A stretch of DNA of 60,101 bases, filler included. It is 3 parts of 3 records of this genome, joined end to end, with 100 filler letters (N's around TTAATTAATTAA, not from the genome) between each part and the next. Parts side by side here need not be neighbours in the genome. Positions count along the whole stretch, not along the records: positions 1 to 29,790 come from DRR723986_7813; 2 more parts are not named here. One strand, given 5' to 3'. The notes below the pieces were generated by a model. The model searched no databases. It was not told the DNA's origin and worked only from the letters and a program-made list of their open reading frames with translations. This document shows, piece by piece, positions 1-37,174 of this stretch; position 1 is the stretch's first letter; every line of letters starts with the position of its first letter. A program made the position numbers and the translations under genes.

Positions 1-810
1 CTCAACTATGAAAGGCCCGTGAGGGCTTGCCGGTAAGACTTGCGGAAGACGCTGCCGAGCAGCGAAAGACCTTGGTCGATGGGTAAGGGGGTGCTTCTAC
101 GTTCGGCCCCCTGAAATGCACTGAGGGCGTCTGACGCTTTCAGTGTGAAACTATGCCGGCCCTGGCGGGCTGGACATACGACCAACGTTCCTCCCGATAG
201 ATCGGGATAGCGACGTGATCCGCAAGTAGATGGATAAGACTAACGCAGGAAGCTCTGCGGCTGCCGGAGTAGTTACCGGTGCCTGGAACTGTTTCTTAAG
301 TTGAAGCAGTGCGTCATCCAGGTGATTGAAAAGCCGTAGAGTGGGAGTGTGGCCTAAGTAGAAAGCCGAGTGGTTTGTGGGCGGGAGCTTGCGAACTTAC
401 TCGGGCGATGTTTCCTGCAAGGCAGTGGGAACTCGTTAGCGTCGTAACAGGTGGTGCTGACGGCAATGCTACGACGAAAGGGCTGACGGGTAGTATGAAA
501 TGCTACGAATGAACTGTGCTGAAAGCTGAGTGATTCTCAGTGCTTAGTCCTTGGAAGGGCTGCGGGCGGCTACAAGAGAACTGCATGGGAATGCTGTTGT
601 TTTGTGGCGGCGATCTGACGGCATACCCGTGGAGTGCGTCTGCACTCTACGGAGTATGACCGACGGTTTTTTGCTGGTGGGTTGTATGAATTAGCGAGGC
701 ACAATTCTTGAATGTAGTGCCGAGCAAATACTGCCGCCCCGATTGCAATCTGTTCGCCTGAAGGATGTAAGGCTTTTTGAGGAGTATGTGCCAGTGAACA
801 AATTCCTCAC
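1..810 (+). ncRNA. Candidate large structured non-coding RNA (GOLLD/ROOL-size class; family unassigned; 5' end may be truncated)
   Basis: No ORF >=60 aa in 1-690; back-to-back stems with G-U wobbles on + strand: 13-28 (GUGA loop), 118-146 (13 bp), 152-178, 281-323, 366-403 (GGGA loop), 490-506 (UGAAA loop), 622-658; long-range helices 670-675/723-728 and 564-570 (or 606-611) with 733-739. Confidence 0.65.
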
Positions 811-851
811 GCTACTGTTTAAATCTGCAAGGAGAGTGCTTGGGAGGGCCC

Positions 852-1511
852 ATGTACCGTGCGGTGGCCACATCTGTGGAAGGCTTCATTCAGCAAATTG
901 CCTGCTGCTATCTTCGCCATGGCTACTGGTTCTATGTTGTCGGGCGAGTGCCTGAGGGCAAGAACCCAGAGACAATCGATGACAAGCTAATCAGCAAATA
1001 CGGCATTGCTGTATCTGAATCCACGAGGGCGAGACGCAAGAAGGCGGGCAGGGCAAACCTGCAATACATTCGCCACGGGCGAACCTTTGTGATCTTAGCG
1101 ACCAAAGGCGAGCATCCGTTTTTCCTTGAAGAAGGGAAGTTAGTGCGTGACTTCAGGAGGAAAGCCCTTCGCTACGCTGGCTACTCCGTCACGTACAAGC
1201 CAGGCGGTAGAACCAAAGAAGGCAAGCGAGACCACAAATGGCATTCGCATGTCGAGATTGAGCGTGAGAAATACTTAGACCTCAGGGCTTGGTTTTCAGA
1301 GCGAGCACTTAGAGACTCACCCAACAAACTCGCCTTGGCGTTCTACGAACTCCCCGTTGCACCCTACGCCCCCGTGCGGCGGCAGCTACTCAAGTTGCTG
1401 AAAGAAGTGAACCGCGTTCGCAAACGAGCGGGCAAGAGCCAATTGCCCTACGAGATTCTTCCGCTGAGAAGACGGGTAGTGAAGCCTTTTGCGAGCCGAC
1501 CTGACGCCTAA
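852..1511 (+). CDS. Basic hypothetical protein (219 aa), unknown function
   Basis: ATG at 852 with GGGAGGG RBS at 842-848; Arg/Lys-rich (RARRKKAG, RVRKRAGK). Confidence 0.8.
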   Translation: MYRAVATSVEGFIQQIACCYLRHGYWFYVVGRVPEGKNPETIDDKLISKYGIAVSESTRARRKKAGRANLQYIRHGRTFVILATKGEHPFFLEEGKLVRDFRRKALRYAGYSVTYKPGGRTKEGKRDHKWHSHVEIEREKYLDLRAWFSERALRDSPNKLALAFYELPVAPYAPVRRQLLKLLKEVNRVRKRAGKSQLPYEILPLRRRVVKPFASRPDA

Positions 1512-1579
1512 GGTTACGCAAGCGTTCCGTTCTGATATCCTCTGAGTAGATTAGGCGGGACTAGAACGGCAGGAATCAA

Positions 1580-2488
1580 ATGGGCGACATCAAGCTATTC
1601 AAGACAAAAGCGGACGGTGTAGAGCAACTCGAGGGGAAATCAGTTGCTCTGGAGAAATCCCTCCAAGCCTTGTTTGAGAAGCATCTAGAGGCTTTTCTTG
1701 GGATTCGCTTTTTAGCAACTGAGTATTCAACGGGCAAAACCCATGGCGGGCGAATCGATACTTTGGGCATTGATGAGAACGGCTGCCCATGCATTATCGA
1801 ATACAAACGCTCCAGCAACGAGAATGTCATTAACCAGGGCTTGTTCTATCTCGATTGGCTTTTGGACCACAAAGCAGAGTTTGAGCTCTTGGTACTCAAG
1901 ACATTCGGCCAAGACGTTGCGGATTCAATCGAGTGGTCGAGCCCGCGGCTACTCTGCATTGCTGGCGACTTTACGAAGTATGACAGCCATGCCGTTCAGC
2001 AAATCAACCGCAATATTGAGCTGCTTAAGTACTCACGATACGGCGATGAATTGTTGATGTTGGACTTGGTCAACGCCGTTCAAGCCTCTAGCACAGAGTC
2101 AACGACTTCTAGCGGTGGAAGTAAAAGCAAAGACAAGTCAGTCAGCGAACAGCTCAAGGCCGCTAGCCCTGAACTGACTGACCTATATGAATCCCTCAAG
2201 GCGACGTGTTTAGGTTTTGGGGATGATGTCCAAGAGAAGGTACTCAAGCTCTACGTAGCGTTTAAAAGACTCAAGAATTTTGCCAGCGTCGAAGTGAAAG
2301 CTGGTGCGAACTCCCTCGTGGTCTACGTAAAAGTCGATCCTGATTCGATAACACTCGAGGAAGGATTCACTAGAGACGTTCGCGAAATTGGTCACTGGGG
2401 AACTGGCGATCTCTCTATTTCAATCGCGAGCCAGTCCGACCTTGAAAAGGCAGCTCCTCTTCTTCAAAAGAGCTACGAAGCGTCATAG
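1580..2488 (+). CDS. NucS/EndoMS-like PD-(D/E)XK nuclease domain fused to DUF5655-like domain
   Basis: E...RIDTLG...IIEYK nuclease motif; C-terminal YVAFK...RDVREIGHWGTGD signature. Confidence 0.75.
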   Translation: MGDIKLFKTKADGVEQLEGKSVALEKSLQALFEKHLEAFLGIRFLATEYSTGKTHGGRIDTLGIDENGCPCIIEYKRSSNENVINQGLFYLDWLLDHKAEFELLVLKTFGQDVADSIEWSSPRLLCIAGDFTKYDSHAVQQINRNIELLKYSRYGDELLMLDLVNAVQASSTESTTSSGGSKSKDKSVSEQLKAASPELTDLYESLKATCLGFGDDVQEKVLKLYVAFKRLKNFASVEVKAGANSLVVYVKVDPDSITLEEGFTRDVREIGHWGTGDLSISIASQSDLEKAAPLLQKSYEAS

Positions 2489-2851: not shown

Positions 2852-4660
2852 ATGAGCAAGGAAAACCTCTCTTCATTTATTTGGTCTGTCGCAGATTTGC
2901 TGCGGGGAGACTACAAGCAATCGGAATACGGCAAAGTAATCTTGCCATTCACGGTGCTGCGTCGTCTCGATTGTGTACTGGAGCCAACCAAGAAAGCAGT
3001 GCTTGCCGAGAAGGAAAAACGAGAGGCGGCTGGCGTTAATCCCGAGCCATTCTTGCTGAAGAAATCTGGAGCTTTCTTCTTCAATACCTTCTCGCGTGAT
3101 TTAACGGCCATCGCCGGTGACCAGGACAACATCAGAGAGAACCTCTTTTCCTATGTCCAAGCGTTCTCTTCTGAAGTGAGAGACATCTTTGAGTGCTTTG
3201 ACTTCCACACCCAGATTGAGCGTCTATCGAAAGCGGGCTTGCTTTATCTCGTCACTGAGAAATTTGTAAACATCGATCTGCATCCTGATGCGGTCAGCAA
3301 TGCCCAGATGGGCCTGGTGTTTGAAGAGTTGATTCGCAAGTTTGCTGAACTCTCGAATGAAACGGCTGGGGAACACTTTACCCCGCGTGAAGTCATCAAA
3401 CTGATGGTGAACCTCTTGTTCATTGAGGACGATGAAGCTCTGACAAAGCCCGGAATCGTTCGCTCGCTCTACGACCCTACGGCTGGAACTGGCGGGATGC
3501 TTTCCGTAGCTGACGAGCACTTAAGCGGCCACAACCCGGATGCTCGGCTCGTCATGTATGGCCAAGAGCTCAACGATGAGTCCTACGCAATCTGTAAAGC
3601 AGACATGCTCATTAAGGGCCAAGATGTAAGCAACATCATTAACGGCAACACGCTATCCGAGGACGGTCTTCCAGATAAGAAATTTGATTACATGCTTTCC
3701 AATCCTCCATTTGGAGTGGAATGGAAGAAAATTCAAAAGGATGTAAAGAAAGAGCACGAGCAAGAGGGCTTCAATGGGCGATTCGGCCCAGGCTTACCTC
3801 GCGTGAGCGACGGTTCACTACTCTTCCTGATGCACCTGATCTCCAAAATGCGACCGACCAAGGATGGAGGCAGTCGCTTTGGCATTGTTCTTAACGGCTC
3901 GCCGCTATTCACGGGAAGTGCGGGCTCAGGAGAATCCGAGATTCGTCGATACGTATTGGAGAACGATTTACTGGAAGCCATCATCGGCCTGCCTACCGAC
4001 ATGTTCTATAACACCGGCATCAGCACCTACATCTGGATCGTAACCAACCGCAAGCCACCGGAAAGAAAGGGCAAGGTGCAGCTAATCGATGCCGGCGAGA
4101 TGTGGCAAAAGATGCGAAAGAGTCTCGGAAGCAAACGCAAGGAATTGAGGGACGACCACATTGCAGAAATTACACGCCTGTTCGGCGAAGCCAAAGAAGT
4201 CTACGTCGATCCCGAAACTGGCAAGAAAGTGAGCAGCAAGGTAATTGCCACAGGCAAAGCACCATCTGGCCAACCACCAACACCCATTAGCCGCATCTTC
4301 AAGACGACCGACTTTGGCTACCAAACGATCACGGTCGAAAGACCGCTGTTGGATGAAGACGGTCAGCCGCAGCTTGAAACGCGAGGCAAAAAGAAAGGCA
4401 AGCCTAAGCCTGACTCGAAACTGCGAGACACCGAAGAAGTTCCGCTGGGCGAAGACATCTACGAGTATTTCCAGCGAGAGGTCGAGCCACACGTTCCCGA
4501 CGCATGGATCGATGAGGACAAGACGAAGATCGGCTACGAGATCCCGTTCAACCGTCATTTCTATGTGTTCAAACCGCCCCGCGAGTTGGATGAGATCGAC
4601 ACGGAATTGAAAGGGGTCACTGACGCAATCGTCAACATGATCGGAGAGCTTTCGCAATGA
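2852..4660 (+). CDS. hsdM: Type I restriction-modification methyltransferase subunit M
   Basis: [14 protein letters not shown]-terminus, [10 protein letters not shown] (SAM binding), NPPF (N6-adenine catalytic motif). Confidence 0.97.
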
Positions 4661-5970
4661 GTCTCGTCGTTCATTTGGAGAAAGTTGAAAGCGGAATCGA
4701 TTGGCTTGGCGAAATACCGGTTGATTGGGAGGTCATGCGTCTTCGCCATGTCGCTGAACTAAATCCGTCGAAGTCCGAAGTAGCCGAAGTTGATCGAGAT
4801 CAACACGTTTCTTTCTTACCGATGGAGGCAATTGGAGACGACGGCACGATTGAACTTGAGAAGTCACGACCGATTGGAGCAGTCGAGAGTGGTTACACGT
4901 ACTTTCGCGACGGCGACGTAACTCTTGCGAAGATCACTCCGTGCTTCGAGAACGGCAAAGGTGCGATCATGCGTGACTTACTCAATGGAATCGGGTTTGG
5001 CACAACGGAGTTAATCGTCGCGCGTCCGCGAGAAGAGCGAATCACAGGCGAGTACCTCAATTGGCTTTTTAGATCGACATACTTCCGCAAGTTGGGTGAA
5101 GGCTCGATGTACGGAGCAGGCGGACAGAAGCGAGTTCCCGATGATTTTGTCCGTAACTTTGAAATCGCGATCCCACCGCTCAACGAGCAAAAGGCGATCT
5201 CGTCGTTCCTCGATGTGGAAACATCGAAGATCGACGCTTTGGTATCGGAGCAGCGTCGTTTGATCGAGTTACTGAAGGAAAAGCGTCAGGCGGTCATCAG
5301 TCACGCGGTCACCAAAGGCCTGAACCCGAACGCCCCACTAAAACCCTCCGGCATCCAATGGCTCGGCGATATCCCAGAGCATTGGGATGTGAAATCAGTC
5401 CGTTACGCCTGTGATGTTCACAACACCTTAAGGACGCCAATCGACAGGCAGACGAGATTAAACATAGCAGGTGACTTTCCGTACTACGGTCCAACCGGCG
5501 TGCTTTCGTGGATCAACAAGTACGTTGTTGATGGCGAGTACTTTCTGCTCGGAGAAGATGGTGACCACTTTTTGAAGTACCGGACTCAGTCGATGACGGT
5601 CAATGTTGAAGGGCAATTCAACGTTAACAATCACGCGCACCTGATTCGGGGCAAAGGCAACTGCTCAACGAAGTGGGCTTCCCTTTACTTCGAGCATAAA
5701 GACGTGAGCCCGTGGCTCATCAAGCAGGGTGTTGGACGAATGAAGCTGCGGAAGGAAAAGCTGCTCACGATTCCAATTCTTGTGCCACCACCGGCTGAGC
5801 AAATGGAGCTACTTGCCGAAGCCGATCGAATGAGAGAGACCACGAGGTCGCTCATCGCGGAAGCTGAACGAGCCATCGAGCTTTTCCAAGAACGCCGCAC
5901 CGCCCTCATCTCCGCAGCCGTCACCGGCAAGATCGACGTCCGGAACTTTGCCAGACAGGAGGTCTCATGA
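4657..5970 (+). CDS. hsdS: Type I R-M specificity subunit S
   Basis: Two TRDs with conserved WLG(E/D)IP..W, PPLNEQ/PPPAEQ and [17 protein letters not shown] overlap with hsdM. Confidence 0.95.
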
Positions 5971-7661
5971 GTATTGAGGAAGAGCAGAATAAGCGACTCG
6001 AGGCTCTCGTCAAAGACAAGGAAGGGGAAGTACTCGAATTTAAGAAGGCTACGAATCGGTATGATTTTGAAGAGTTGGCTCGCTACTGCTCGGCTTTAGC
6101 CAATGAGGGAGGAGGGAAAATACTCCTTGGCGTATCGGACGAGCGACCAAGGCAAATTCTCGGCTCAAAAGCCTTCGACCAGCCTGAGCGTACTAGGAAA
6201 GGCCTTTGTGAAAGAATTCCTTTAGCAATTGATTTTGAGGAGGTTTACCACCCGGACTGCTCTGCTGATTCGCGAGTACTGATTTTTGAAGTTCCATCTC
6301 GTCCCGTTGGTATTCCGATTAAATACGACGGACGTTACTGGATGCGAAAGGAGGATAGTCTTGTCGAAATGTCGGAAGAACGGCTGCGGGCAATTTTCGA
6401 TGAGAGCGGACACGACTTTACATCAGATACAGTTGCTGGACTCACGATCGCAGCTCTTGAGGAATCCTCCATTGAGACTTTTAGAGAACGATGGATTTCG
6501 AAGGCAACTAAGGCAGAAGATAGTGAACTTGCGGAGCGTTTGCGGTCTCTGGATCAAATGCAGCTTTTAGAGGATGCAGAGGCAATTGTAGGAGGCTCTC
6601 TTACTTATGCAGCTCTCATTCTATTTGGAAAAAGGCAAACACTAAGCAAGCATCTCGCGGCAGCCGAAATCGTCTTTGAGTATCGCTCAAGTGATGCTTC
6701 TGGACCGGCACAAGACCGGAAGGAGTTCCGCGAGGGTTTCTTTGGCTTCTACGACGCTATATGGAAACAGGTTAATCTGCGAAATGACAAACAAGATTTT
6801 CAGGAAGGGCTCTTCGTTGCTCCCATTTCGACTTTTGCGGAACGTGCTGTCCGTGAAGCCATTCTCAACGCGGTGAGCCATCGGAACTATCAGTTGAACG
6901 GGAGTATCTTCGTTCGCCAGTATCCAAGACGGTTGGAGATTGATAGTCCAGGAGGGCTACCTCACGGAATCACGTTGGAAAATATTCTCGACAGGCAGAA
7001 TCCACGAAATCGACGTTTGGCTGAAATCCTAACCCGTTGTGGTCTGGTCGAAAGGTCAGGGCAAGGGATGAATTTGATCTTTGAAGAACAGATTAAACAA
7101 AGCAAGCCAGCTCCTGACTTTGATAGGACAGATCAATATCAAGTTGGTCTTACCTTGCACGGTACCGTTCAAGACCCTGCCTTTGTTCGCTTTGTGGAAA
7201 AGGTCTCCAATGAGGCAACAACTTATTTCAATACTCATGATTGGCTACTGATGTCTGCAGCCGCCAGGGGCGAGAAGTTACCGAGGGGTTTTGAAAAGAG
7301 TATTGCTCGTTTGGTTGATGTCGGAATTCTGGAACGTGGCAAAGGTCGAACACATATCCTCTCTCGGCGATTCTATGAGTTCGTTGGAGAGACGGGTGCG
7401 TACACTCGTAAGAAGGGCCTAGATAGAGAGCACAACTTGGCTCTGTTGAAGAAGCATATTGACGAAAATGCTGCGGTTGGCTCAAAGCTGGATGAGCTCT
7501 GCCAAGTGATTCCCTCGCTACCTCGCACGCACGTTCAATCGCTATTACAGACTCTAAAGCGTAGGGACCTAGCCCATCCAGTTGGGCAACGCCGTGCAGG
7601 CGTTTGGTATCCAGGCCCTGCAGGGCAGGATAACGAGGAGGACGAGAGCAGTGACGCATAA
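5967..7661 (+). CDS. Schlafen/AlbA_2 domain + HATPase_c_4 + wHTH protein inserted in the R-M operon
   Basis: EGEVLEFK...SALANEGGG.ILLGVSD; REAILNAVSHRNY, SPGGLP, RNRRLA, VERSGQG. Confidence 0.85.
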   Translation: MSIEEEQNKRLEALVKDKEGEVLEFKKATNRYDFEELARYCSALANEGGGKILLGVSDERPRQILGSKAFDQPERTRKGLCERIPLAIDFEEVYHPDCSADSRVLIFEVPSRPVGIPIKYDGRYWMRKEDSLVEMSEERLRAIFDESGHDFTSDTVAGLTIAALEESSIETFRERWISKATKAEDSELAERLRSLDQMQLLEDAEAIVGGSLTYAALILFGKRQTLSKHLAAAEIVFEYRSSDASGPAQDRKEFREGFFGFYDAIWKQVNLRNDKQDFQEGLFVAPISTFAERAVREAILNAVSHRNYQLNGSIFVRQYPRRLEIDSPGGLPHGITLENILDRQNPRNRRLAEILTRCGLVERSGQGMNLIFEEQIKQSKPAPDFDRTDQYQVGLTLHGTVQDPAFVRFVEKVSNEATTYFNTHDWLLMSAAARGEKLPRGFEKSIARLVDVGILERGKGRTHILSRRFYEFVGETGAYTRKKGLDREHNLALLKKHIDENAAVGSKLDELCQVIPSLPRTHVQSLLQTLKRRDLAHPVGQRRAGVWYPGPAGQDNEEDESSDA

Positions 7662-27500: not shown

Positions 27501-28029
27501 TGCGTTCCGCTCACGTTCTGCAAGCAAAAAGAGAGAGTTGTCGGAATCGGAGTCAGCAAGAGCTTTGCAATGCTACAAAGTTCTTGAGGCTTGGGATTCC
27601 CCTCCAGGCCTTCAAGTAGGAGGCAAGGTGAATGCAGCACTTCTAAACTCATGGGTAAACGAAGCACTACGCTTAGCGGAAGACTCTGGCCACGTCGAGA
27701 TTGCCCAACAACAGATAGGGGCCGTATTCCTTTATGCTCCGACCAAGACCAACGATGGGGTGCTAGAGGACAGCTACGCGAAGATGCTTAATGCTTCGGA
27801 ACACAAAGACATGAGGCGAGGCTTTGAAATAGCAACCTATAACTCAAGAGGAGCCCACAACGTCGACCCGAAAGCCCGACCAGAACTCAAGCTGCAAGAA
27901 ACTTACTCGGCACGTGCCGATGCAGCTGAGCTCGAAGGATTTCACCGCCTCGCGGAGACATACCGGAATATATCTGGCTTTTATGAAAGGGAAGCTCAGA
28001 GGATTCTCGAACGCTATGAAGACACTTAG
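24502..28029 (+). CDS. Large putative defence protein: N-terminal PD-(D/E)XK-like nuclease + long helical domain
   Basis: GGNFE...EFQ...TDD...CQIK; C-terminal LAEAAP.EFLDAVE, LLWALETLAW, DPGGNWANRP.NSL; no clear Walker A. Confidence 0.7.
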   Translation: MGGNKGNKRLPKNSVNTTKAKKLSNPLSTGNSGGNFEARVQASFVVQMLAEGSAPCLTGTRITKVEFQNKFKGIETDDATVYAEGAGGRESRLLCQIKRGIRIQKNAPKLAETIKAAWDDFKKPKFRKDSDRLALITDHLSSTDIALREVLEAATASQSVAEFRKRMSLGQFTSENQRNKLKVVEHHLKRANGNALVNDQELFEFLRCFRVLTYDLDIKGASLSLLQTITGMFSSDAEGLWAKILMHVSYRNERASSISKEDLPADILSELQKQPRILIPDGLAPSIDEGNWHDLDGIENLVPAILVGQWQEGSDGDRSLFERVSDSSYDDWQKSIQPVVVNAGVPLRVQKGLWEFVNRRENWDFFRALLFDRTAEKFIDVAREALLESSPAFDLPPDERVLASIKGKVPKYSPQIKMGFAEGLALLSQKTEVFNKMDKTKAQGLVFVCVRKIYDKADWKLWASLDRLHPYLAEAAPVEFLDAVEELLNSKSGTLQRLFSLESSDLLGGGNYVTGLLWALETLAWSEEYLSRVTDLLGQLASRDPGGNWANRPFNSLISIFLPWYPQTLAPSSRRVAAVKMLSNECEEVAFKLILSLMPQQHQSTSGTHKPSYFLSVPEESEVDSRDSYAKEVREYSKLLLKLGLGRIERMKLIIRVLPQLSSAQLNEFIESVQELHTGGEDLLDLWHLLLEHCTIYKASSAKTSGFKKLKALTDSIAPKQVADRAKHLFGPEAYQEFYSDPKYTDPDEALNRKRDEAVAEIFATGGFKSALGFANSVDDAHLVGVSLAHATRECIQETISIVTTKKDSKAIDFARYYIKEVFRLEGGWTWFEALELSHLNAQSMASVLLSLPGTNELILYLKNLSKKTQEHYWSKVGRVAAFADWDMNAAAKELLKHNRPALALSCIHKRLYRSKKLDSQLALTALNAMTQGSGSEGDGYEVVQVLAELQKDKRVEVSQLIPLEFYFLDLLTHYPETRPLTLVSELATDPVAFHELIKTAFRSRSASKKRELSESESARALQCYKVLEAWDSPPGLQVGGKVNAALLNSWVNEALRLAEDSGHVEIAQQQIGAVFLYAPTKTNDGVLEDSYAKMLNASEHKDMRRGFEIATYNSRGAHNVDPKARPELKLQETYSARADAAELEGFHRLAETYRNISGFYEREAQRILERYEDT

Positions 28030-29198
28030 ATATTTACCCTCGAGGCCTGCTCCAGCATGTGCTCGGGGCTATGCGATAGGTGCTGATAAACTCGAGCCAG
28101 CATCGAGGGGTCTTTGTGCCCCATGAGCAAGGCGACGGTTAGCGGATCAACCCCTTGTTTAAGGGCATTGGTGGCCCAAGAGTGCCTTAACGCATAGAGC
28201 GAATAACGTGGAGCCATTTCCTTAGCCATTGATTGATACAGCTTTCGCTTGGCTTCCTCCCTGAGTTCAGGTTTCGTCTTTTGCCGGAGCTTTCCTCTTC
28301 GCTTCGTTGTTTTCTTCAGCGACTTAATCTTCTCGCGGATAGCCAATTCCGAAGGCTGCTTGCCGCTCGCATCAAGTCTCGCTCTGCCCATTCGAATTCG
28401 AATCCGGTCCACAGCACAATTGACGGATTCTGAGTTCCAGGGAACCTCTGCGGTATTGCGAAAGAGATTCCCACTTGGATACTGCTTGAGAAGTCGCTTG
28501 GTTATCTCAAGGGCAGTGTCATCAAGGTAGACGATACGCGGAGCGTGCTTGCCCTTAGACTTCTTCTGAGGGAACACCCAGCGAGAATTGCCAAGGTCAA
28601 CATACTCACCAGTGAGGATGAGCGTCTCCTGAGGCCGTGCTCCGGTGTGATAGGTGGTAATGAACAGATCTTTGAGTTCTTCGCACTCGATGTAGCCAAG
28701 AAGCTCCTGGAACTCCTCAGGCGGTAGGTAGACATCTTTCCTTTCTGAACCCGGCATCTGAAGAGCCTCGAGCGGATGCCTATCGATATGCCCCTGCTTA
28801 AGAGCCCAAGTGAGGCAGGTCTTAATCGAGCGAAAGTAGTTCCGCCTGGTAGTCTCTGCAAACTTGTACTGGTCGACCCACTGCTCAACGTGAAAGGGCT
28901 TGAGGCTATTCACCTTGATGTCTGGATAGCGGTCAACGAATCGCTGAAGCCGGTACTGATACCACTCGTAGGTATCCGGGGCTCGGTGCTTTTGAACCCA
29001 ATCGAGATAGAGGTCAATCAACTCGGTGACACTCGGGTTGAGATTGGTCTGAAGCTTAGGCTCAGGATTCGCCATCAGCTCATGGTAGAGCTTGAACGCT
29101 TCATCCTTGTCTTTGCCAAGGTTGATTTGCTTACCGGAAATTTGGACGTACCAGACGCCCCTGGATGCCTTAAAAAAGGGCTTTGGATAATGTGGCAT
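28026..29198 (-). CDS. Tyrosine integrase
   Basis: TGARPQE, KSKGK, YALRHSWAT, MGHKD...Y; adjacent to tRNA 3' end. Confidence 0.95.
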   Translation of the reverse strand: MPHYPKPFFKASRGVWYVQISGKQINLGKDKDEAFKLYHELMANPEPKLQTNLNPSVTELIDLYLDWVQKHRAPDTYEWYQYRLQRFVDRYPDIKVNSLKPFHVEQWVDQYKFAETTRRNYFRSIKTCLTWALKQGHIDRHPLEALQMPGSERKDVYLPPEEFQELLGYIECEELKDLFITTYHTGARPQETLILTGEYVDLGNSRWVFPQKKSKGKHAPRIVYLDDTALEITKRLLKQYPSGNLFRNTAEVPWNSESVNCAVDRIRIRMGRARLDASGKQPSELAIREKIKSLKKTTKRRGKLRQKTKPELREEAKRKLYQSMAKEMAPRYSLYALRHSWATNALKQGVDPLTVALLMGHKDPSMLARVYQHLSHSPEHMLEQASRVNI

Positions 29199-29390: not shown

Positions 29391-29464
29391 CACGCCCGGC
29401 AGGATTCGAACCTGCAACCCTCGGTTCCGAAGACCGATGCGCTATCCAGTTGCGCCACGGACGC
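29391..29464 (-). tRNA. tRNA-Arg (anticodon UCG), CCA not encoded
   Basis: GCGTCCGTGGCGCAACTGGATAGCGCATCGGTCTTCGGAACCGAGGGTTGCAGGTTCGAATCCTGCCGGGCGTG folds as cloverleaf; anticodon loop CT-TCG-GA. Confidence 0.95.
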
Positions 29465-29790: not shown

Positions 29791-29890
29791 NNNNNNNNNN
29801 NNNNNNNNNNNNNNNNNNNNNNNNNNNNNNNNNNTTAATTAATTAANNNNNNNNNNNNNNNNNNNNNNNNNNNNNNNNNNNNNNNNNNNN
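29791..29890. other. Artificial contig linker
   Basis: N-run, TTAATTAATTAA (29835-29846; stops in all six frames), N-run. Confidence 0.98.
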
Positions 29891-31802
29891 TCTCGCCCTG
29901 GATATACATGCCGCGGATCTGCCCCGCGTGCACGGCATCGAGGATTTCCGTCACCGTCAGGCCCTTTTCGGCGCTGAAGTCGGACGTTCCCCAGACCCTG
30001 TTGAAGGCATCGCGGATCGTGTCCTGCGTCACGTCCTGGTAGTCGGGCAGGAACATCGGGATCAGCCCCGCGTCCGAGGCGCCCTGCACGTTGTTCTGCC
30101 CCCGGAGCGGGTGTAGCCCGGTGCCGGGGCGTCCGACATGGCCGGTCATCAGCGCCAGCGAGATCAGGCAGCGCGAGTTGTCGGTGCCGTGGATGTGCTG
30201 GCTGACGCCCATGCCCCAGAAGATCATGCCCGCCTGCGCCCCCGCGAAGGTGCGGGCCACGTCGCGCAGCACTTCGGCGGGGATGCCGCAGACCTCTGCC
30301 ATCTTCTCGGGGGGGAAGTCCCTGAGGTGCTCTTTCTCGGCCTCCCAGTTCTCGGTGAAGGCTTGGATGTACTGTTCGTCGTACAGCCCCTCTTCGACGA
30401 TGACATGCATGATCGCGTTCAGCATGGACACGTCGGCGCCGGGTTTGAACTGCAGCATGTGGCTGGCATAGCGGCGCAGGCCGACGCCGCGCGGGTCCAT
30501 GACGATCAGCTTGCCGCCGCGCTTGGTGAACTGCTTGAAGTAGGTGGCCGCGACGGGGTGGTTCTCGATCGGGTTGGCGCCGATCACGATGGCCACGTCG
30601 GCGTTCTCGATCTCGTTGAAGGTGGCGGTGACGGCGCCGCTGCCGACGTTTTCCATCAGGGCGGCCACCGAGGAGGCGTGGCACAGCCGCGTGCAATGGT
30701 CGACGTTGTTGTGGCCAAAGCCCTGTCGGATCAGCTTCTGGAAGAGGTAGGCCTCTTCGTTGGTGCATTTGGCGGAGCCGAAGCCCGCGACGGCCTGCCC
30801 GCCATGCTGGTCCTTCAGGCGTTTCCAGCCGTTCGCGGCGAGGTCCAGCGCCTCGTCCCATTCGGCCTCGCGGAAGACATGGCTCCAGTTGCCGGGTTCG
30901 ACGTTAAGCCCCTTCGCGGGCGCGTCATCGCGGCGGATCAGCGGTTTCGTCAGGCGGTGCGGGTGGTGGATGTAGTCGAAGCCGAAGCGCCCCTTGACGC
31001 ACAGCCGCCCCTCGTTCGCCGGACCGTTCAGGCCCTGGACGTATTTGACCTTGTCGTCCTTGACCTTCAGCGAGACCTGGCAGCCCACCCCGCAGAAGGG
31101 GCAGACGCTTTGCACCTCGCGGTCGAAATCGGCGCGGTCGCCCACCTGGTTCTCGTCCACCACGGTCGAGGGCATCAGCGCCCCCGTGGGGCAGGCCTGT
31201 ACGCATTCGCCGCAGGCCACGCAGGTCGAGGCGCCCATGTCGTCGCCAAGATCGAAGACCGGATAGGCGTCGTGGCCGCGCCCGGCCATGCCGATCACAT
31301 CGTTGACCTGCACTTCGCGGCAGGCGCGCACGCACAGCCCGCACTGGATGCAGGCGTCGAGGTTCACCGACATCGCGATATGGCTGTCGTCGAGCAGCGG
31401 GATGCGCTCGGCCTCCAGCGTCGGAAAGCGCGACTCCGCAATGCCCTGCCGGTCGGCCATGTCCCAAAGGTGGGCGGATTTGTCGTGGGCGGCCTCGCGT
31501 TCGGGCTGATCCGCCAGCAGCAGTTCCATCACCAGCTTACGGGCCGTCTGCGCGCGCGGAGTCGCGGTCTTCACCACCATGCCCTCGGCCGGTTCGCGGA
31601 TGCAGGAGGCCGCGAGAACGCGCTCTCCCTCGATCTCGACCATGCAGGCGCGGCAGTTGCCGTCGGGGCGGTAGCCCGGCGCGGGTTTGTGGCACAGATG
31701 CGGGATCGTCAGGCCACGCCCGTTCGCCACCTCCCAGATGGTCATGCCGGGCTGTGCCTCGACCTGGGTTCCATCGAGGGTGAATCGGATTGTCTCGGCC
31801 AT
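29891..31802 (-). CDS. fdhF: Formate dehydrogenase alpha subunit (3' truncated by contig end)
   Basis: N-terminal Fe-S motifs (CRAC, CIQCGLCVRAC, CVACGECVQAC), CPFCGVGC, RLCHASS (Cys ligand), PLRGQNNVQG; GGAGG RBS. Confidence 0.93.
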
Positions 31803-32072
31803 GAGAACGCCTCCCCTGCGTGTTCCGGGCATCTTAGACCATGCGCAGGCCGGCCCGCATGGAACAATGCCGACCTTCGGCGGCGTTTTTGCGTCGCGGG
31901 GTTTCGGATCGGCGTCCGGGGCCGGCGAAGGCGAAACCCGGCGCCGCCGGACCTGTGCGAATTCGTCGCAAAACCCTGCAAGTGTGCGTTTGCGCACCAA
32001 CCCTCAGCGGCCATGACCGTATTCCGGACGCGCCGCCCTGCCTATCTTGGTAGAGAAGCAAGGAGGCCAGCC

Positions 32073-32552
32073 ATGAAAGCCCACCCCGAAACCCGCATCG
32101 GCCATGTGCATCTGAAAGTCACCGATCTCGAACGATCCATCGCGTTCTATCGCGACGTGATCGGGCTGGAGGTCACGCAGCGCTACGGCGTGCAGGCGGC
32201 CTTTCTTTCCGCCGGAGGCTATCACCACCACATCGGCCTGAACACATGGCACAGCGAGAACGGCCCGCGTCCCGATCCCCGCGCGCCCGGGCTCTACCAC
32301 ACCGCCTTCGTCTACCCGGACCGCAAGGCGCTGGCGGCGGCGCTGCAACTGGCGCTGGATCACGGGGTCGTGCTCGAGGGGGCCGCCGACCACGGCGTGT
32401 CGGAGGCGGTGTATTTCTCGGACCCTGACGGCAACGGCATAGAGCTGTACCGCGACCGCGATCCCGCCGACTGGCCGCGGGGCGGTGACGGCGCGCTGGT
32501 CATGTCCAACCGGCCGCTCGACCTGAAGGCGCTGCTGGGCGAACTGGCCTGA
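32073..32552 (+). CDS. VOC/glyoxalase family protein (catechol 2,3-dioxygenase-like)
   Basis: IGHVHLKV, GGYHHHIGLNTW, DHGVSEAVYFSDPDGNGIELY. Confidence 0.9.
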   Translation: MKAHPETRIGHVHLKVTDLERSIAFYRDVIGLEVTQRYGVQAAFLSAGGYHHHIGLNTWHSENGPRPDPRAPGLYHTAFVYPDRKALAAALQLALDHGVVLEGAADHGVSEAVYFSDPDGNGIELYRDRDPADWPRGGDGALVMSNRPLDLKALLGELA

Positions 32553-32615
32553 GCGCGGACGGGGTGGACCTTGCGCGGCGGCGCCCCTAGGCTCCGCCGC
32601 AAAAAGGAGATCCCC

Positions 32616-33476
32616 ATGGCGACCGGCACCGACATCCGCACCTATTTCAACGGCCAGTGGCACGATGCCGACGCGATGATCATGCGCGCCGCCGACCATG
32701 GCGCATGGCTGGGATCCGGCGTCTTCGACGGCGCGCGGATGGTCGACGGGATGGTCCCCGACCTTCAGGCGCATTGCGCCCGCGTCAACCGCTCTGCCAA
32801 GGCGCTGATGCTTACGCCCACCGTCTCGACCGAGGACATGGTCGAGATGATCCGCGAGGGCTTGCAGGCCTACCCCGCCGATGCGGCGGTCTACATCCGG
32901 CCGATGTACTGGGGCATCCACGGCGACGCCACGGCGATCGTGCCGCAGCGGGACGAGACCGGCTTTGCCATCTGCCTCGAACGCATCCCCATGGCGCCCG
33001 CGACGGCCAGCGTCACGCTGGGCCGGACGCGGTTCCGGCGTCCGGTTCTGGAAAGCGCGGTGGTCAACGCCAAGGCGGGCTGCCTCTATCCGAACAACGC
33101 GCGGATGCTGGCCGAGGTGCGCGCGCGCGGCTTCAACAACGCGCTGGTGACGGATGCCATGGGCAACATCGCCGAGAGCGCCACGGCCAATGTCTTCATG
33201 GTGCGCGACGGGGTGGTCTTCACGCCCATTCCGAACGGCACCTTCCTTGCCGGCATCACCCGCGCGCGGCACATCGCCAACATGAAGGCGGACGGGATCG
33301 AGGTGGTCGAGGGCGTGCTGTCCTTCGAGGATTTCGAGGCGGCGGACGAGGTCTTCCTGTCCGGCAACATGAACAAGGTGACGGCGGTGAGCGGCTTCGA
33401 GGACGTCTCGTACCAGACCGGGCCGGTGACGAAGCGCGTGCGCGAGATGTATTGGGACTGGGCCGCTTCGGCCTAA
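32616..33476 (+). CDS. Branched-chain amino acid aminotransferase (class IV PLP)
   Basis: VFDGAR, AKAGCLYPN, AESATANVF, FLAGITR, ADEVF. Confidence 0.9.
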   Translation: MATGTDIRTYFNGQWHDADAMIMRAADHGAWLGSGVFDGARMVDGMVPDLQAHCARVNRSAKALMLTPTVSTEDMVEMIREGLQAYPADAAVYIRPMYWGIHGDATAIVPQRDETGFAICLERIPMAPATASVTLGRTRFRRPVLESAVVNAKAGCLYPNNARMLAEVRARGFNNALVTDAMGNIAESATANVFMVRDGVVFTPIPNGTFLAGITRARHIANMKADGIEVVEGVLSFEDFEAADEVFLSGNMNKVTAVSGFEDVSYQTGPVTKRVREMYWDWAASA

Positions 33477-33485
33477 GGCGGCGCC

Positions 33486-33638
33486 ATGGAAAAGCTGATC
33501 GTCATCGGCATCGTTCTGGCGCTTTTCGGCGGGGCCATCGCGGTGATCCACCGCAACCACAAGCGCGAACAGGCAGAGCGCCGGGCGCGGCGCGACGCCG
33601 CGCGGCAAGAAGCCGACACCTCCGGGGACCGCGAATAG
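33486..33638 (+). CDS. Small single-TM protein (50 aa, below ORF-track cutoff)
   Basis: MEKLIVIGIVLALFGGAIAVIHRNHKREQAERRARRDAARQEADTSGDRE; GC3-rich codons. Confidence 0.6.
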   Translation: MEKLIVIGIVLALFGGAIAVIHRNHKREQAERRARRDAARQEADTSGDRE

Positions 33639-33740
33639 GCGCCGGGCCCGCGCAGGGCGGACGGCGGCAGAGCCGCAGCGCGCGCCATGCTGGACAGGCC
33701 CTCCGCCCTCTGCCACTGTCCCGCTTCAGGAGGCCCCCCG

Positions 33741-34196
33741 ATGCGCAAGTTCCTCGTCGTGCTCGACGACAGCCGAGAATGCCTGAACGCCATGCGCTTC
33801 GCTGCCATGCGCGCGGCGAAGTCCGGCGGCGGCGTGGCGATCCTTTCGGTGATCCCGCCCGATGAGTTCAACCACTGGATCGGCGTCGGGGACATCATGC
33901 GCGAAGAGGCACGGGAACGCATTCACGCCCATTTCGAGGTCTTCGCCAAATGGATGCGCGACAAGCAGGGCGTCGACCCCGAGCTTGTGATCCGCGAGGG
34001 CGATCCGGTGACCGAAATCCTTGCGCAGGTCGCCGACGACCCCGAGATCGGGCTTCTGGTGCTTGGCGCCTCGGTCGACAAGAAGGGCCCCGGCCCGCTG
34101 GTGAACCAGATGACCCGCACCTCGGGCACTCTGCCCATCCCGGTCACGATCGTGCCGGGGGATCTCTCGAAAGAGCGGCTGGAAGCCATCACCTGA
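33741..34196 (+). CDS. Universal stress protein
   Basis: MRKFLVVLDDS...LLVLGA...GPGPLV...PVTIVP. Confidence 0.9.
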   Translation: MRKFLVVLDDSRECLNAMRFAAMRAAKSGGGVAILSVIPPDEFNHWIGVGDIMREEARERIHAHFEVFAKWMRDKQGVDPELVIREGDPVTEILAQVADDPEIGLLVLGASVDKKGPGPLVNQMTRTSGTLPIPVTIVPGDLSKERLEAIT

Positions 34197-34230
34197 CCCA
34201 CGACGCCGACCATTTCCACGGACCATTTTC

Positions 34231-35304: not shown

Positions 35305-35329
35305 GGGCCAGTTTAGAACGGTTCCAATC

Positions 35330-35359
35330 CTTGACGCATGGGCCGCGGAGGCGCATATA
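35330..35359 (+). promoter_or_regulatory. Possible RpoH-type promoter
   Basis: CTTGAC...CGCATATA upstream of the NifU-family gene. Confidence 0.35.
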
Positions 35360-35389
35360 GGGGGCCAGGCCAGAAAAGGTGCAGAACCG

Positions 35390-35953: not shown

Positions 35954-36062
35954 GCGAAAGGCCCTTGAAGGGCCTTTCACCCGCCGTCCACGGCGGGTCG
36001 AAGCCGGTTCCAACCGGCTTCCCCACGTTGCGCAGGCCCCGCGCCCGGGGCATAAGCACCGC

Positions 36063-37059: not shown

Positions 37060-37174
37060 CGTCGCTGCTGCGTCTGCAAAAACCGGTTGACCCTCCCCTT
37101 CCGCTGCGGCTTTGATTGATCTGTCACAATCAGACGGGCAGAGACCTTGCCCGCGTCTCAACTGGGAGCATTTC

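Follow-up and report, generated by a model that had tools for sequence, protein, structure and literature searches.

A probable circularly permuted group II ribozyme beside an AcpG-like protein gene on an integrative, plasmid-like element

A structured RNA and a basic protein gene at the start of the window

The window, by which we mean the whole stretch of DNA analyzed (60,101 nt including filler, three parts of one genome joined end to end), opens on its plus strand with a strongly structured RNA that contains no ORF (positions 1 to ~725), followed by a leader that is poorly conserved in the family profile (726–851, plus strand) and a gene for an AcpG-like protein of 219 aa (852–1511, plus strand; ATG at 852, TAA at 1509–1511). 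The encoded protein has a pI of 10.3 and an Arg+Lys content of 21.5%, and a Shine-Dalgarno-like GGGAGGG lies at 842–848, which agrees with the ribosome-binding site and Arg/Lys-rich ORF given in a preliminary description of this DNA. The minimum free energy of positions 1–850 on the plus strand is −359 kcal/mol (z −8.3), a value equaled by none of 20 shuffles, and the reverse strand of the same stretch scores z −3.4. All three plus frames of 1–850 are closed, with 13–16 stops each and a longest open run of 60 codons. Across the family alignments, 153 of 184 predicted pairs feature compensatory changes. The structured region described ahead of the ORF is real.

Its limits differ from those first proposed. 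The register was set with L001, a twin locus approximately 98% identical to the window, which supplies the RNA to the left of the window edge. Window base 1, the counterpart of L001 base 5149, is internal to a conserved motif (AUAGCUCAAC), and in L001 a further ~500 nt of conserved RNA, with the catalytic D5, D6, and both splice sites, precede it; the RNA does not begin within the window. Nor does it end 30–40 nt before the ribosome-binding site, since covarying conserved structure stops near window position 725, ~125 nt before the start codon. The reported lack of a U-tract terminator holds for the interval between RNA and ORF, where a simple terminator scan found none; a T6 run does occur at 667–672, inside the RNA and after a hairpin.

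The RNA within the window can be divided into four overlapping or adjoining elements, all on the plus strand. Positions 1–197 resemble the middle of a D1-like ribozyme domain, truncated at the left edge of the window inside an AUAGCUCAACYAUGAAAGG box, and in the corresponding alignment (A9, L001 4970–5345) 54 of 71 predicted pairs are compensatory. The putative ribozyme core (182–387) comprises a GACUAACGCAGGAA box (239–252), a three-way junction and a GGGAGUGUGGCCUAAGUAGAAAG box, with compensatory changes in 20 of 25 pairs of alignment A6. A covariance model, R1, was built from a shorter alignment (A7) that covers the window's part of the RNA; it matches window 232–366 with 109.6 bits (E 5.8e-29), from a training set that excludes the window's own sequence but includes its 98% twin L001. 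Positions 372–702 are assigned from A8 covariation (35 of 40 pairs) to 3′ domains resembling D2, D3, and D4a, whose individual borders are approximate. This region features a GGCAAGGCAGUC hairpin, an invariant ACGAAAG (474–480), a long hairpin at ~617–660 followed by the T6 run, and a conserved GUAUGAAUU at 684–692, such that conserved RNA carries on 3′ of the T6 run. The last conserved element, with moderate support, is a candidate terminal hairpin with a conserved GAAU..AG loop (694–725). With its structure drawn by hand on alignment A10, 60.5% of cells are paired against 52.7% in shuffles (0 of 500 as high), the covariation score is 0.255 against 0.162, and the register is the best of seven slid along the block; RNAalifold predicted no structure here because the alignment contains a misaligned insertion. 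In the two other blocks of the family, 37 of 41 and 7 of 7 pairs are compensatory.

Group II domains and reversed splice sites

The identity of this RNA is suggested by what lies to its left. The Rfam model for group II D5-D6 (RF00029) matches L001 4722–4846 on the plus strand, 303–427 nt left of window base 1, with 41.9 bits against a gathering score of 40. Among 35 aligned family members, D5 carries GAGC in 32 and a GAGA loop in 30, has a 2-nt bulge, and its pairs covary; D6 follows the pattern UUCUAUCC-R-AU, in which an A is left unpaired. AU closes the 3′ boundary in every one of the 35 rows, and a linker of 70–200 nt (median 85; 125 nt in L001) comes next. At the 5′ boundary beyond the linker the same rows read GUGAG (15), GUGCG (9), GUGAU (3), or GUGAA (3), often with A rather than Y at base four, the remaining rows being cut after GUG (4) or misaligned (1). 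The linker, which is the predicted circle, contains an invariant box (GGGCGAYRCGGA) and a covarying 7-bp hairpin, and D5 is preceded by a covarying outer stem and two hairpins. The 5′ third of the putative ribozyme, comprising P1/P2 stems, D5, D6, the 3′ splice site, a short "exon" and the 5′ splice site, thus sits just left of the window.

Beyond D5-D6 come ~1.1 kb of RNA that is conserved, covaries and contains no ORF, an order repeated in 35 of 37 loci. By its position, size, covariation and a few boxes, this downstream block suggests D1-D4. It matches no Rfam D1-D4 model, at E≤1 in L001 and L002 or at E≤0.1 in L074–L077; Rfam likewise gave no match at E≤10 in window 1–1600, and at gathering score over the whole window it gave tRNA only. 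The canonical order, with D1-D4 5′ of D5-D6, was not found at L001. A 429-aa ORF stops 520 nt before D5 in L001, iteron-like repeats occupy the space between them, and only ~70 nt upstream of D5 are conserved; therefore no D1-D4 can precede D5 at this locus. [quoted passage not shown]

Alternatively, D5-D6 could simply belong to the tail of a group II intron, either canonical or decayed, with the window's structured RNA being something unrelated, a leader or ncRNA that goes with the downstream gene. RF00029 models canonical introns, the L001 score is barely above threshold, and the window RNA is without any Rfam D1-D4 match, as this alternative would have it. Against this, the conservation profile is unbroken, starting ~70 nt before D5 and reaching ~1.1 kb beyond D6, 35 of 37 loci preserve the spacing between D5-D6 and the ORF, and there is nothing further conserved upstream of D5 in L001 and no room there for D1-D4. 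Moreover, the GUGAG/GUGCG boundary recurs at a conserved short distance 3′ of the 3′ splice site, and the partner protein is related to AcpG. We regard an intron tail beside an unrelated RNA as very unlikely, and the circularly permuted layout as the appropriate frame for the comparisons below.

CP group II ribozymes and their associated protein AcpG were described by Roth, Weinberg, Vanderschuren, Murdock and Breaker (2021; PMC8637638), and later cryo-EM work has addressed Cte 1 and Gdi-1 (PMC13717195; bioRxiv 10.64898/2025.12.30.696962). In Cte 1, the branch A is at 127 and the 5′ splice site at G220 (PMC8637638). The RNA described here shares with that class an initial D5-D6, a linker between reversed splice sites followed by a large multi-domain RNA, stems 5′ of D5, the absence of an ORF within the RNA, both plasmid and chromosome locations, a predicted circle of ~85 nt, and an adjoining protein of the AcpG family. 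It differs in size (~1.2 kb, compared with a published ~900 nt; PMC8637638) and in its 5′ boundary, which is mostly GUGAG here and GUGYG in the published class (PMC8637638). Its D5-D6 is near enough to canonical introns to pass RF00029, unlike that of the copy on pTT8. The phyla also differ: those given in the published main text are Deinococcus-Thermus, Firmicutes and Proteobacteria, and the string "Planctomycet" occurs in it 0 times (PMC8637638).

Two long-range contacts were considered. The P2-D2 loop-loop pseudoknot is, according to PMC8637638, the best supported CP-specific feature. In our alignment a hairpin loop RCCA 5′ of D5 complements the conserved UGGU loop of a hairpin that may be D2 (window ~270–278) in 22 of 33 rows, without clean compensatory change. 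For the pairing that would close D4 (omega-omega′), RNAduplex of the 5′ region against the 3′ tail returned only spurious full-length duplexes.

The T. thermophilus plasmid pTT8, the minus strand of which is the site of a published CP RNA, permits a more direct comparison. That strand and Bacillus cereus p30090_4 both carry the boxes GGGCGAYNYKRA, AKAGCUC and NNUAAYGNNGGAD in this order, which was found in 0 of 2000 pTT8 shuffles; the three boxes were picked post hoc, and all three regular expressions together match only 20 of the 35 family RNAs. On pTT8, R1 yielded E 6.9 (the box only) under default filters, and once the filters were switched off it had no match at E≤1; the best block HMM reached E 0.32, and RF00029 had no match at E≤1. 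As no covariance-model or HMM match there is significant, homology to the published class at the RNA level is argued from motif order.

An AcpG-like protein with a predicted reverse transcriptase fold

The 219-aa protein belongs to a large lineage (1599 homologs at E≤0.001 in one search, 1231 representatives at the same threshold). The preliminary description could assign it to no characterized family. This stands for Pfam (best E 0.16, a chance match to Peptidase_S68, with no RVT_1), PHROGs, NCBIfam and PADLOC, profile searches of PDB sequences gave chance matches only (E≥0.27), and the Atlas yielded no more than a lead (0.80), to a cluster in which 15% is RVT_1; it does not stand for profile-profile comparison. 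There, hhalign of the family (A2) against an AcpG family built around the pTT8 ORF (A3) returned 94.9% with E 4.5e-8 over 163 columns, with collinear GY.aW, LhhAT and LP.F..V..Q blocks. The link to AcpG is confined to this profile-profile level: BLASTP against the pTT8 ORF gave E 0.21, and the family profile against that single sequence 1.4%. The pTT8 ORF (L003 6164–6943, 259 aa) is equated with TTHC007/AcpG from the paper's description rather than from an identifier, because it is ~260 aa long and both adjoins and diverges from the RNA. On this comparison, the 219-aa protein reads as a remote AcpG homolog.

Modeling the structure and searching with Foldseek, a check that the preliminary description had proposed, pointed to group II intron reverse transcriptases (RTs). 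The AF2 model (pLDDT 96.7, pTM 0.90) matches 8h2h_D best, with Z 9.9 and an rmsd of 4.3 over 197 aligned residues, followed by further group II intron RTs (8t2r_D, Z 9.3; 6me0_C, Z 8.9; 7uim_D, Z 8.7); these Z scores of 8–10 are "middling" by the search tool's own note and derive from predicted models. Foldseek assigns the top three matches a probability of 0.99, and a Foldseek-independent search of 48,161 chains places group II or G2L4 RTs at ranks 1–3. An independent model of the Thermus-type AcpG (pLDDT 89.9) also ranks 6me0_C first (Z 8.3, 188 residues aligned). All the long structural matches (>140 residues) are to proteins of the RT family, and none is a LAGLIDADG enzyme. One homolog (P0013) carries the label "Homing endonuclease LAGLIDADG", which found no support in either fold or profile searches and was set aside. 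The protein is thus predicted to adopt an RT palm and thumb, maturase-like in character.

The resemblance to intron-encoded RTs is partial. The N-terminal fingers part is absent, the structural alignments begin at RT chain residue ~103–155, and the protein is 219 aa long against ~400–600 for intron-encoded RTs. No conserved YxDD-type acidic residues were seen: among 77 sequences D43 and D100 are the only nearly invariant acidic residues, the β-hairpin at 70–83 reads Y72-x-R74...T84 with no conserved Asp, and the AcpG alignment A3 has no invariant Asp either. Read from the alignment, the catalytic aspartates (the motif A Asp and the motif C YxDD) appear to have been lost. As the protein has no En or DNA-binding domain, retromobility is not expected.

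Other members of the palm/thumb fold family are close behind, including the RT-like core of Prp8 (Z 7.0–7.8), DRT9 (Z 7.8–8.1), G2L4 (Z 7.9–8.3) and a DGR RT (Z 8.0). There is no sequence similarity to Prp8 or to retron, DRT2/DRT9, DGR and G2L4 RTs, all of which are much larger, and unlike retron and DRT-type RTs the locus has no defense operon and no msDNA-type template RNA. The parallel with Prp8 is one of use, in that the RT fold would serve to hold a splicing RNA and not to polymerize. Compared with the canonical group II intron RNP, the locus shares the D5 AGC triad, 2-nt bulge and GNRA-type loop, the D6 bulged A with AY after it, a partner with a predicted intron RT palm/thumb (Z 8.7–9.9), and an ORF beside the RNA end equivalent to D4; the domain order is permuted here.

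These structural data also bear on the proposal that the protein is functionally unrelated to the RNA, for instance serving the element in DNA binding or replication, and that the RNA is a long structured 5′ leader. The strongly basic composition of the protein, the LAGLIDADG label on one homolog and the moderate structural Z scores are what such a proposal can draw on. Yet 153 covarying pairs, together with a catalytic D5 and the branch site in D6, far exceed a leader, and the structural matches longer than 140 residues are of the RT family throughout. In Thermus, moreover, the AcpG gene adjoins the RNA but is divergent from it (PMC8637638), so linkage is independent of a leader relationship. 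We consider a leader with an unrelated protein highly improbable, and return to the protein as a partner of the ribozyme.

Linkage, spread and a proposed mechanism

The preliminary description had envisaged RNA and protein as partners and proposed looking for the RNA upstream of homologous genes. In the genomic sense the partnership is borne out, and by reciprocal searches. In 35 of 37 homolog loci, D5-D6 precedes the ORF by 1145–1889 nt and is encoded on the same strand; in a 36th (L050) the RNA blocks are found further upstream, behind a ~1.1-kb insertion. Conversely, R1 yielded 41 matches in 31 of 151 genomes, and for 38 of these matches the protein gene follows downstream, on the contig and strand of the match; kinship with AcpG points the same way. 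Here the gene nearly always comes immediately 3′ of the RNA and shares its strand, whereas published AcpG genes vary in orientation and distance and are often absent (PMC8637638). Six RF00029 matches with a "long D6" (L078–L083) were considered as examples of the RNA without the protein and rejected, having no block HMM match at E≤1e-3 and no protein gene; they fall outside this RNA family.

The AcpG-like lineage is present in 34 of 151 sampled genomes of one order (a sample taken around G202), and homologs are named in Rhodopirellula bahusiensis, Stieleria maiorica, Crateriforma conspicua and Novipirellula artificiosorum. Outside Pirellulales, plasmids of planctomycetes and cyanobacteria, and weakly one of B. 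cereus, again show the RNA paired with the protein gene. Among them, the planctomycete plasmid pK2D_1 matches RF00029 with 49.4 bits and R1 with E 2.4e-16. The RNA was also detected in Leptolyngbya pLBX (RF00029 47.6 bits; R1 E 2.5e-6), in Calothrix plasmid5 (P1-D6 HMM E 2.6e-21; R1 E 1.7e-4) and, weakly, in B. cereus p30090_4 (R1 E 0.009), where the D5-like hairpin carries CGC. The nearest genome (G001) lacks the DNA of window 1–1511, and the protein was found in 0 of 201 genomes of its order, in which the element is simply uncommon. A back-translated scan of genome contigs with the single protein returned two loci only.

The module rides on an integrative, plasmid-like element. In L001 it neighbors a ParA-like ORF and the iteron-like repeats, in pLBX it neighbors ParA/ParB, pTT8 and p30090_4 are small plasmids, and the island in the window carries integrases and a T4SS coupling-protein-like ORF. 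Downstream genes vary across the loci examined (aminotransferase-like, integrase, exonuclease, sigma-54 activator, R-M). The adjacency to an R-M cluster in the preliminary description is accurate for this element but is not conserved in the other loci examined. With R-M and nuclease neighbors not conserved and no PADLOC match, the defense role offered there lacks support, as does an RNA-guided process, given that the RNA bears the hallmarks of a self-processing ribozyme and not of a guide.

Taken as a whole, the locus is a variant of the already known CP group II and AcpG system. We think it probable that a ribozyme of the CP group II intron type, ~1.2 kb long, contributes its 3′ two-thirds, from most of D1 through D2-D4a, to window 1 to ~725, and that ORF 852–1511 encodes a distant AcpG homolog with a predicted RT palm/thumb, which would act as a maturase-like cofactor. 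In the proposed mechanism, which is an analogy with CP group II ribozymes assayed in vitro, the transcript would fold and the bulged A of D6 would attack the downstream 5′ splice site, before GUGAG/GUGCG; the freed 3′-OH would then attack the upstream 3′ splice site, after AU. The products would be a small circular RNA (predicted at 70–200 nt, median 85) and a 2′-5′ branched RNA. A circle and a branched RNA, in place of spliced exons and a lariat, are the products expected from the permuted order. The branched RNA would hold D1-D4 and, if co-transcribed, the downstream ORF, the product of which would bind the ribozyme and, like a maturase, help it to fold or splice. CP group II RNAs have been described and studied as protein-free, and PMC8637638 leaves the interaction of AcpG with the RNA open. 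The ORF lies where an intron-encoded protein would land if a canonical intron were permuted in the D4 loop. What the sequences show is a structured, covarying RNA, the identity of D5/D6 and the order of the domains, synteny of RNA and protein gene, a remote homology to AcpG and a similar predicted fold; that the RNA is catalytic, forms a circle, binds the protein and is co-transcribed with its gene, and how the arrangement evolved, we infer.

A different emphasis, which takes up the element maintenance or defense of the preliminary description, is that the working product is an RNA, whether circle or branched, serving replication, partition, copy control or defense, and that the ribozyme chemistry is maturation only. 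The invariant box and covarying 7-bp hairpin of the circle exceed the apparent need for exon binding, copies adjoin Rep/ParA/ParB-type genes on plasmids or integrative elements, and the island in the window has its integrases and T4SS coupling-protein-like ORF. Conservation of the exon may nonetheless reflect the IBS/delta′ pairings described for CP introns (PMC13717195), the neighbors vary widely, the protein has no PADLOC match, and there is no link from the RNA to replication. We consider it unlikely that such an RNA product is the primary function, and favor the ribozyme and its maturase-like cofactor.

A broader evolutionary reading can be put forward tentatively, and we give it slightly less than even weight. 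AcpG-type proteins may be shrunken, polymerase-dead remnants of an intron-encoded RT, making CP group II elements two-part RNPs. The planctomycete and cyanobacterial order, D4b-D5-D6-exon-D1-D2-D3-D4a-ORF, may be ancestral, derived from a canonical ORF-bearing intron opened in the D4 loop just downstream of the ORF. The protein would then be a minimal "maturase", comparable to the RT-like core of Prp8, aiding the back-splicing that yields a small, conserved circular RNA, of which plasmids and integrative elements of at least three phyla would make use.

The literature covered, which lay mostly outside subscription journals and included the text of PMC8637638, contains no report of an RT-like AcpG or of a planctomycete CP group II RNA. 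The RNA and the AcpG-like gene are here almost never apart and share a strand across a large lineage. If the RT fold holds, AcpG gains a testable role as a maturase-like cofactor, and the permutation a simple origin, with the D4 loop having broken next to the ORF. Culturable planctomycetes would then be on offer for an in vivo search for the circle, and the system may interest those who engineer CP introns for circular RNA production.

A structured RNA cut by the window edge

The first 850 nucleotides of the window (+) have every frame closed, with 13-16 stops in each and a longest open stretch of 60 codons, are G-rich (32.6% G, 21.2% C) and fold with a minimum free energy of -359 kcal/mol (z = -8.3 relative to 20 dinucleotide-shuffled sequences; the same folding test gives z = -3.4 for the reverse strand). 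With no open frame, strong folding and an ORF without a family at 852-1511, the preliminary description of a structured RNA followed by a basic ORF on one strand therefore stands. An Rfam search of window 1-1600 returned no match, even at E<=10. The window edge cuts this RNA: in L001, an Aureliella MAG contig whose identity to the window is ~98% in the RNA and 97% in the protein, the sequence carries on to the left of position 5149, the equivalent of window base 1. There, L001 4722-4846 is recognized on the same strand by RF00029, the Rfam model of group II intron D5-D6, at 41.9 bits (gathering score 40), 303-427 nt ahead of the window start. Across 35 related loci, unbroken blocks of 90-100% identity run from ~L001 4650 to ~5875 (window ~725); the proteins of those same loci are just 33-78% identical.

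The only conserved sequence 5' of D5 is ~70 nt long and forms an outer stem, which covaries, plus two hairpins, and in L001 a 429-aa ORF stops 520 nt ahead of D5, with three iteron-like repeats in between. D1-D4 therefore cannot fit ahead of D5, and the long conserved RNA lies 3' of D6. Of the 35 aligned rows, 32 have GAGC in D5 and 30 have a GAGA loop there; D5 also has a 2-nt bulge and covarying stems, and D6, which has an unpaired A, terminates in UUCUAUCC-R-AU. This AU is followed, in order, by a variable stretch, the invariant box GGGCGAYRCGGA, a 7-bp hairpin, CCGUCA..UCAAAG and a 5' boundary that reads GUGAG in 15 of the 35 rows, GUGCG in 9, GUGAU in 3 and GUGAA in 3 (four further rows are cut after GUG and one is misaligned). 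The two boundaries lie 70-200 nt apart (median 85; 125 nt in L001). The predicted circular 'exon' maps to L001 4895-4976 and to the same place in 34 other loci, and also to ~5794 (-) in L003, the Thermus thermophilus plasmid pTT8, and ~2296 in locus L076. With its GGGCGAYRCGGA box, fully covarying 7-bp hairpin and CCGUCA..UCAAAG, it is not free sequence; the first of these boxes also occurs in pTT8 and in Bacillus cereus p30090_4.

Covariation was assessed by applying RNAalifold to MAFFT alignments of five blocks, each with 34-35 loci, and counting predicted pairs with changes on both sides. Compensatory change was found in 153 of 184 predicted pairs: 37/41 in the P1-D6 block, 7/7 in the linker hairpin, 54/71 in the first half of the D1-like domain, 20/25 in the core block with the GACUAACG and CCUAAG boxes, and 35/40 in the 3' domains taken as one block. 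The last hairpin (window 694-725) has moderate support.

Roth et al. (PMC8637638) describe circularly permuted (CP) group II RNAs with the order D5-D6-D1-D2-D3-D4 and no ORF inside, AY and GUGYG boundaries reversed around a short linker, and extra P1/P2 stems at the 5' end. A 2026 paper (PMC13717195) describes pairing of the 5' and 3' ends of the CP intron that rebuilds the D4 stem, so that the permutation point would lie inside D4. The predicted architecture of the window-family RNA matches the ribozymes described by Roth et al., although its 5' boundary is more often GUGAG than the published GUGYG and the RNA is longer than described. The P2-D2 pseudoknot, a feature of CP group II RNAs, was not clearly seen, and none of the Rfam D1-D4 models matches the family RNA in window 1-1600, L001, L002 or L074-L077. 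Neither the block HMMs nor R1, a covariance model built from the in-window block alignment A7 (33 of 35 rows; two with large insertions omitted), significantly matches the pTT8 RNA. The two RNAs share a common motif order, found in 0/2000 shuffles, with boxes picked after sequence inspection and three regexes satisfied by just 20 of 35 family members. Overall, these data suggest that the locus is a CP group II-type ribozyme with an AcpG-type partner, AcpG being a protein reported beside CP group II RNAs, and that the window probably holds only the non-catalytic two-thirds of the ribozyme.

Linkage of the RNA to the protein gene

At E<=0.001, the window protein finds 1599 relatives in the 90% clusters, most of them with names from Pirellulales, and 1231 among 50% representatives. 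Within the order of G202, an Aureliella MAG, protein matches occur at 44 places in 34 of 151 genomes, several genomes having two; G202 itself has two copies, whose proteins are 97% and 77% identical to that of the window, and genome G203 has three. This multi-copy, patchy spread fits a mobile or element-borne module.

The preliminary description had proposed examining whether homologs of the protein carry the RNA upstream, and the linkage holds in both directions. For 37 loci taken with ~2.3 kb of upstream sequence, a profile search detected D5-D6 on the same strand, 1145-1889 nt ahead of the ORF, in 35. In locus L050, a ~1.1-kb insertion places the other RNA blocks further upstream and D5-D6 would fall beyond the stretch taken; in locus L073, no RNA was found in the ~2.3 kb upstream of the gene. 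The L050 (G284:C45) insertion, at 818-2304 and ~1.1-1.5 kb long, lies between the ribozyme end and the AcpG-like gene and occurs in this one locus. Conversely, R1, which matches window 232-366 at 109.6 bits, gives 41 matches in 31 of the same 151 genomes, and 38 of these are followed by a protein match on the same contig and strand. One more has its gene on another contig, at contig ends, and two lack a gene, one of them a weak match (E 8e-4). Of the six protein places that have no R1 match, three are short fragments, two lie at contig ends and one is L073. Six further long RF00029 matches without the protein were considered as RNAs lacking the partner and rejected as a different RNA.

The pairing extends beyond a single order. 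When plasmids were searched by tblastn, nine records gave a protein match, and all four examined feature an unannotated gap of 1.4-1.7 kb ahead of the gene. RF00029 matches pK2D_1 (Planctomycetota) at 49.4 bits and Leptolyngbya boryana pLBX at 47.6 bits, with R1 E-values (computed here, as for the other plasmids, with filters off) of 2.4e-16 and 2.5e-6, respectively; Calothrix plasmid5 is matched by the P1-D6 profile (E 2.6e-21) and by R1 (E 1.7e-4). In B. cereus p30090_4 (R1 E 0.009), the same boxes were seen by eye and a D5-like hairpin has CGC replacing AGC, CGC being the variant of the triad that class IIC introns carry.

The 219-aa protein and its predicted fold

The ORF runs from ATG 852 to TAA 1511 (+), with GGGAGGG at 842-848, and its 219-aa product is basic (pI 10.3, 21.5% Arg+Lys). 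The preliminary description could not assign the protein to a characterized family, and it matches no family in PHROGs, NCBIfam, PADLOC or Pfam (a chance Peptidase_S68 match only, E 0.16), but a profile-profile comparison links it to the AcpG family. Roth et al. gave the name AcpG to TTHC007 of pTT8, a ~260-aa protein whose role they report as unknown and which often, but not always, adjoins CP group II RNAs in any orientation (PMC8637638). The sole ~260-aa ORF of pTT8, at 6164-6943, abuts a 1965-nt unannotated gap with a D5-like hairpin and a D6-like GGUCUAUCGCAAU on its minus strand, and we infer that this ORF is AcpG. Its BLASTP match to the window protein is not significant (E 0.21), and the window-family profile aligns with this single ORF collinearly over 155 columns at a probability of 1.4%. 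Comparison by hhalign of 77 window-family proteins (alignment A2) with 32 AcpG-family proteins (A3) gives 94.9%, E 4.5e-8, over 163 columns.

The structural check proposed earlier was also run. An AlphaFold2 model of the window protein from A2 (pLDDT 96.7, pTM 0.90) retrieved group II intron RNP reverse transcriptases (RTs) first in a Foldseek search of the PDB (8t2r_D, 8t2s_D; probability 0.99, E 1.5e-3), then retron, G2L4 and Prp8 chains. Structural Z-scores of 7-8 are common for unrelated folds; VIA-align gave the Foldseek candidates Z 9.9 for 8h2h_D (197 aligned, rmsd 4.3), 9.3 for 8t2r_D and 8fli_B, and 8.9 for 6me0_C. A Foldseek-independent search of 48,161 chains returned 6me0_C (Z 8.9), 7uim_D (Z 8.7) and the G2L4 RT (Z 8.2), then AbiA, DGR RT, DRT9, Prp8, DRT2 and retron RTs; all alignments of >140 residues were to RT-family proteins, and the matched chain ranges (~103-456) correspond to palm plus thumb. 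A separate model of a Thermus-type AcpG (pLDDT 89.9) places 6me0_C first (Z 8.3, 188 aligned), with the same RT set among its long alignments. What carries weight for the RT-fold reading is that the match list is consistent, that coverage is high for these matches and that two models sharing ~20% identity agree. In A2 the only nearly invariant acidic residues are D43 and D100, the β-hairpin 70-83, at the RT YxDD site, has Y72-x-R74 and T84 instead, and A3 has no invariant Asp. The aspartate loss read from these alignments therefore suggests that the protein is a polymerase-dead RT remnant.

Element context and a proposed splicing route

Window 1-29.4 kb (~50% GC) ends at a tRNA (29391-29464, -) beside a tyrosine integrase, and includes a second integrase, a type IV secretion system (T4SS) coupling-protein-like ORF and an MT-A70 methylase. 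Upstream of the module, L001 has a ParA-like ORF (2-712, -), the 429-aa ORF without a Pfam hit, and iteron-like repeats; the element that carries the module is thus integrative and plasmid-like. The L001 region just upstream of the ribozyme, where three direct repeats of GACGNNACCGACACG come after the Pfam-less ORF (2914-4430), looks like a replication/partition region. The left half (1-29464) is 96% identical to an Aureliella MAG contig (G202:C4), and the right half (30000-60101, 58-68% GC) shares 97% identity with the chromosome of genome G001, where the island is absent; the 219-aa protein is absent from the 201 genomes of G001's order. At the junction lie the tRNA and the integrase (28026-29198, -). 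Either two distant hosts carry a near-identical integrative element, or one of the assemblies is a chimera. Window 30000-38000 forms a third compositional zone (66-73% GC), flanked by the tRNA on one side and the ~60% GC remainder on the other, with long overlapping ORFs on both strands (29835-32000, -; 30138-32552, +).

The pair was said to sit beside a nuclease/restriction-modification (R-M) cluster; this is true in the window, but the type I R-M and PDC-S18 genes are not conserved neighbors. In the other loci inspected, the downstream gene is a class-V aminotransferase-like ORF (six loci), an integrase, a DEDDh exonuclease, a sigma-54 activator, an AAA ATPase or others. The six, in Pirellulales (L010, L011, L012, L018, L021, L028), are convergent ORFs of ~390-435 aa just downstream of the AcpG-like gene, with 31-51% mutual identity and a class-V aminotransferase match in both of the two scanned. 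The window ORF at 1580-2488 (+) matches the PADLOC candidate defense family PDC-S18 (E 2.6e-149), with a NucS-like N-terminal and a DUF5655 C-terminal part. L001 lacks it and has a MerR-type HTH ORF directly 3' of its AcpG-like gene; the two copies of this one element differ here by an indel. A 564-aa Schlafen/AlbA_2 + HATPase_c_4 ORF (5967-7661, +) with weak PADLOC matches to pAgo-associated proteins lies between hsdS and hsdR of the type I R-M system; no such ORF was found between these genes in L001.

We propose that the transcript would begin ahead of P1 and fold into a group II active site, in which the D6 adenosine would attack the downstream 5' splice site and the new 3'-OH would then attack the upstream 3' splice site, freeing a small circle and leaving a branched RNA with D1-D4. 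The ORF would lie on this branched RNA if co-transcribed. The terminator scan found none between RNA and ORF, as the preliminary description had noted; a T6 run (667-672) lies 3' of a hairpin, and conserved RNA goes on beyond it. The basic RT-fold protein may bind the RNA as intron maturases do. According to Roth et al. (PMC8637638), no CP group II RNA shows an intron-encoded protein (IEP) ORF inside it or close by. The gene lies directly 3' of the D4a-like RNA end, which is the expected ORF site if a canonical intron had been split within its D4 loop, on the 3' side of the ORF, and an origin by such an opening of an ORF-bearing intron would be an attractive possibility.

Our literature search found no account of an RT-like AcpG and no CP group II RNAs in Planctomycetes; Data S1 of PMC8637638 may already include some of the taxa. 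What these data add is a large planctomycete and cyanobacterial lineage with near-obligate same-strand linkage of RNA and gene, and a predicted reverse-transcriptase palm/thumb fold for AcpG proteins.
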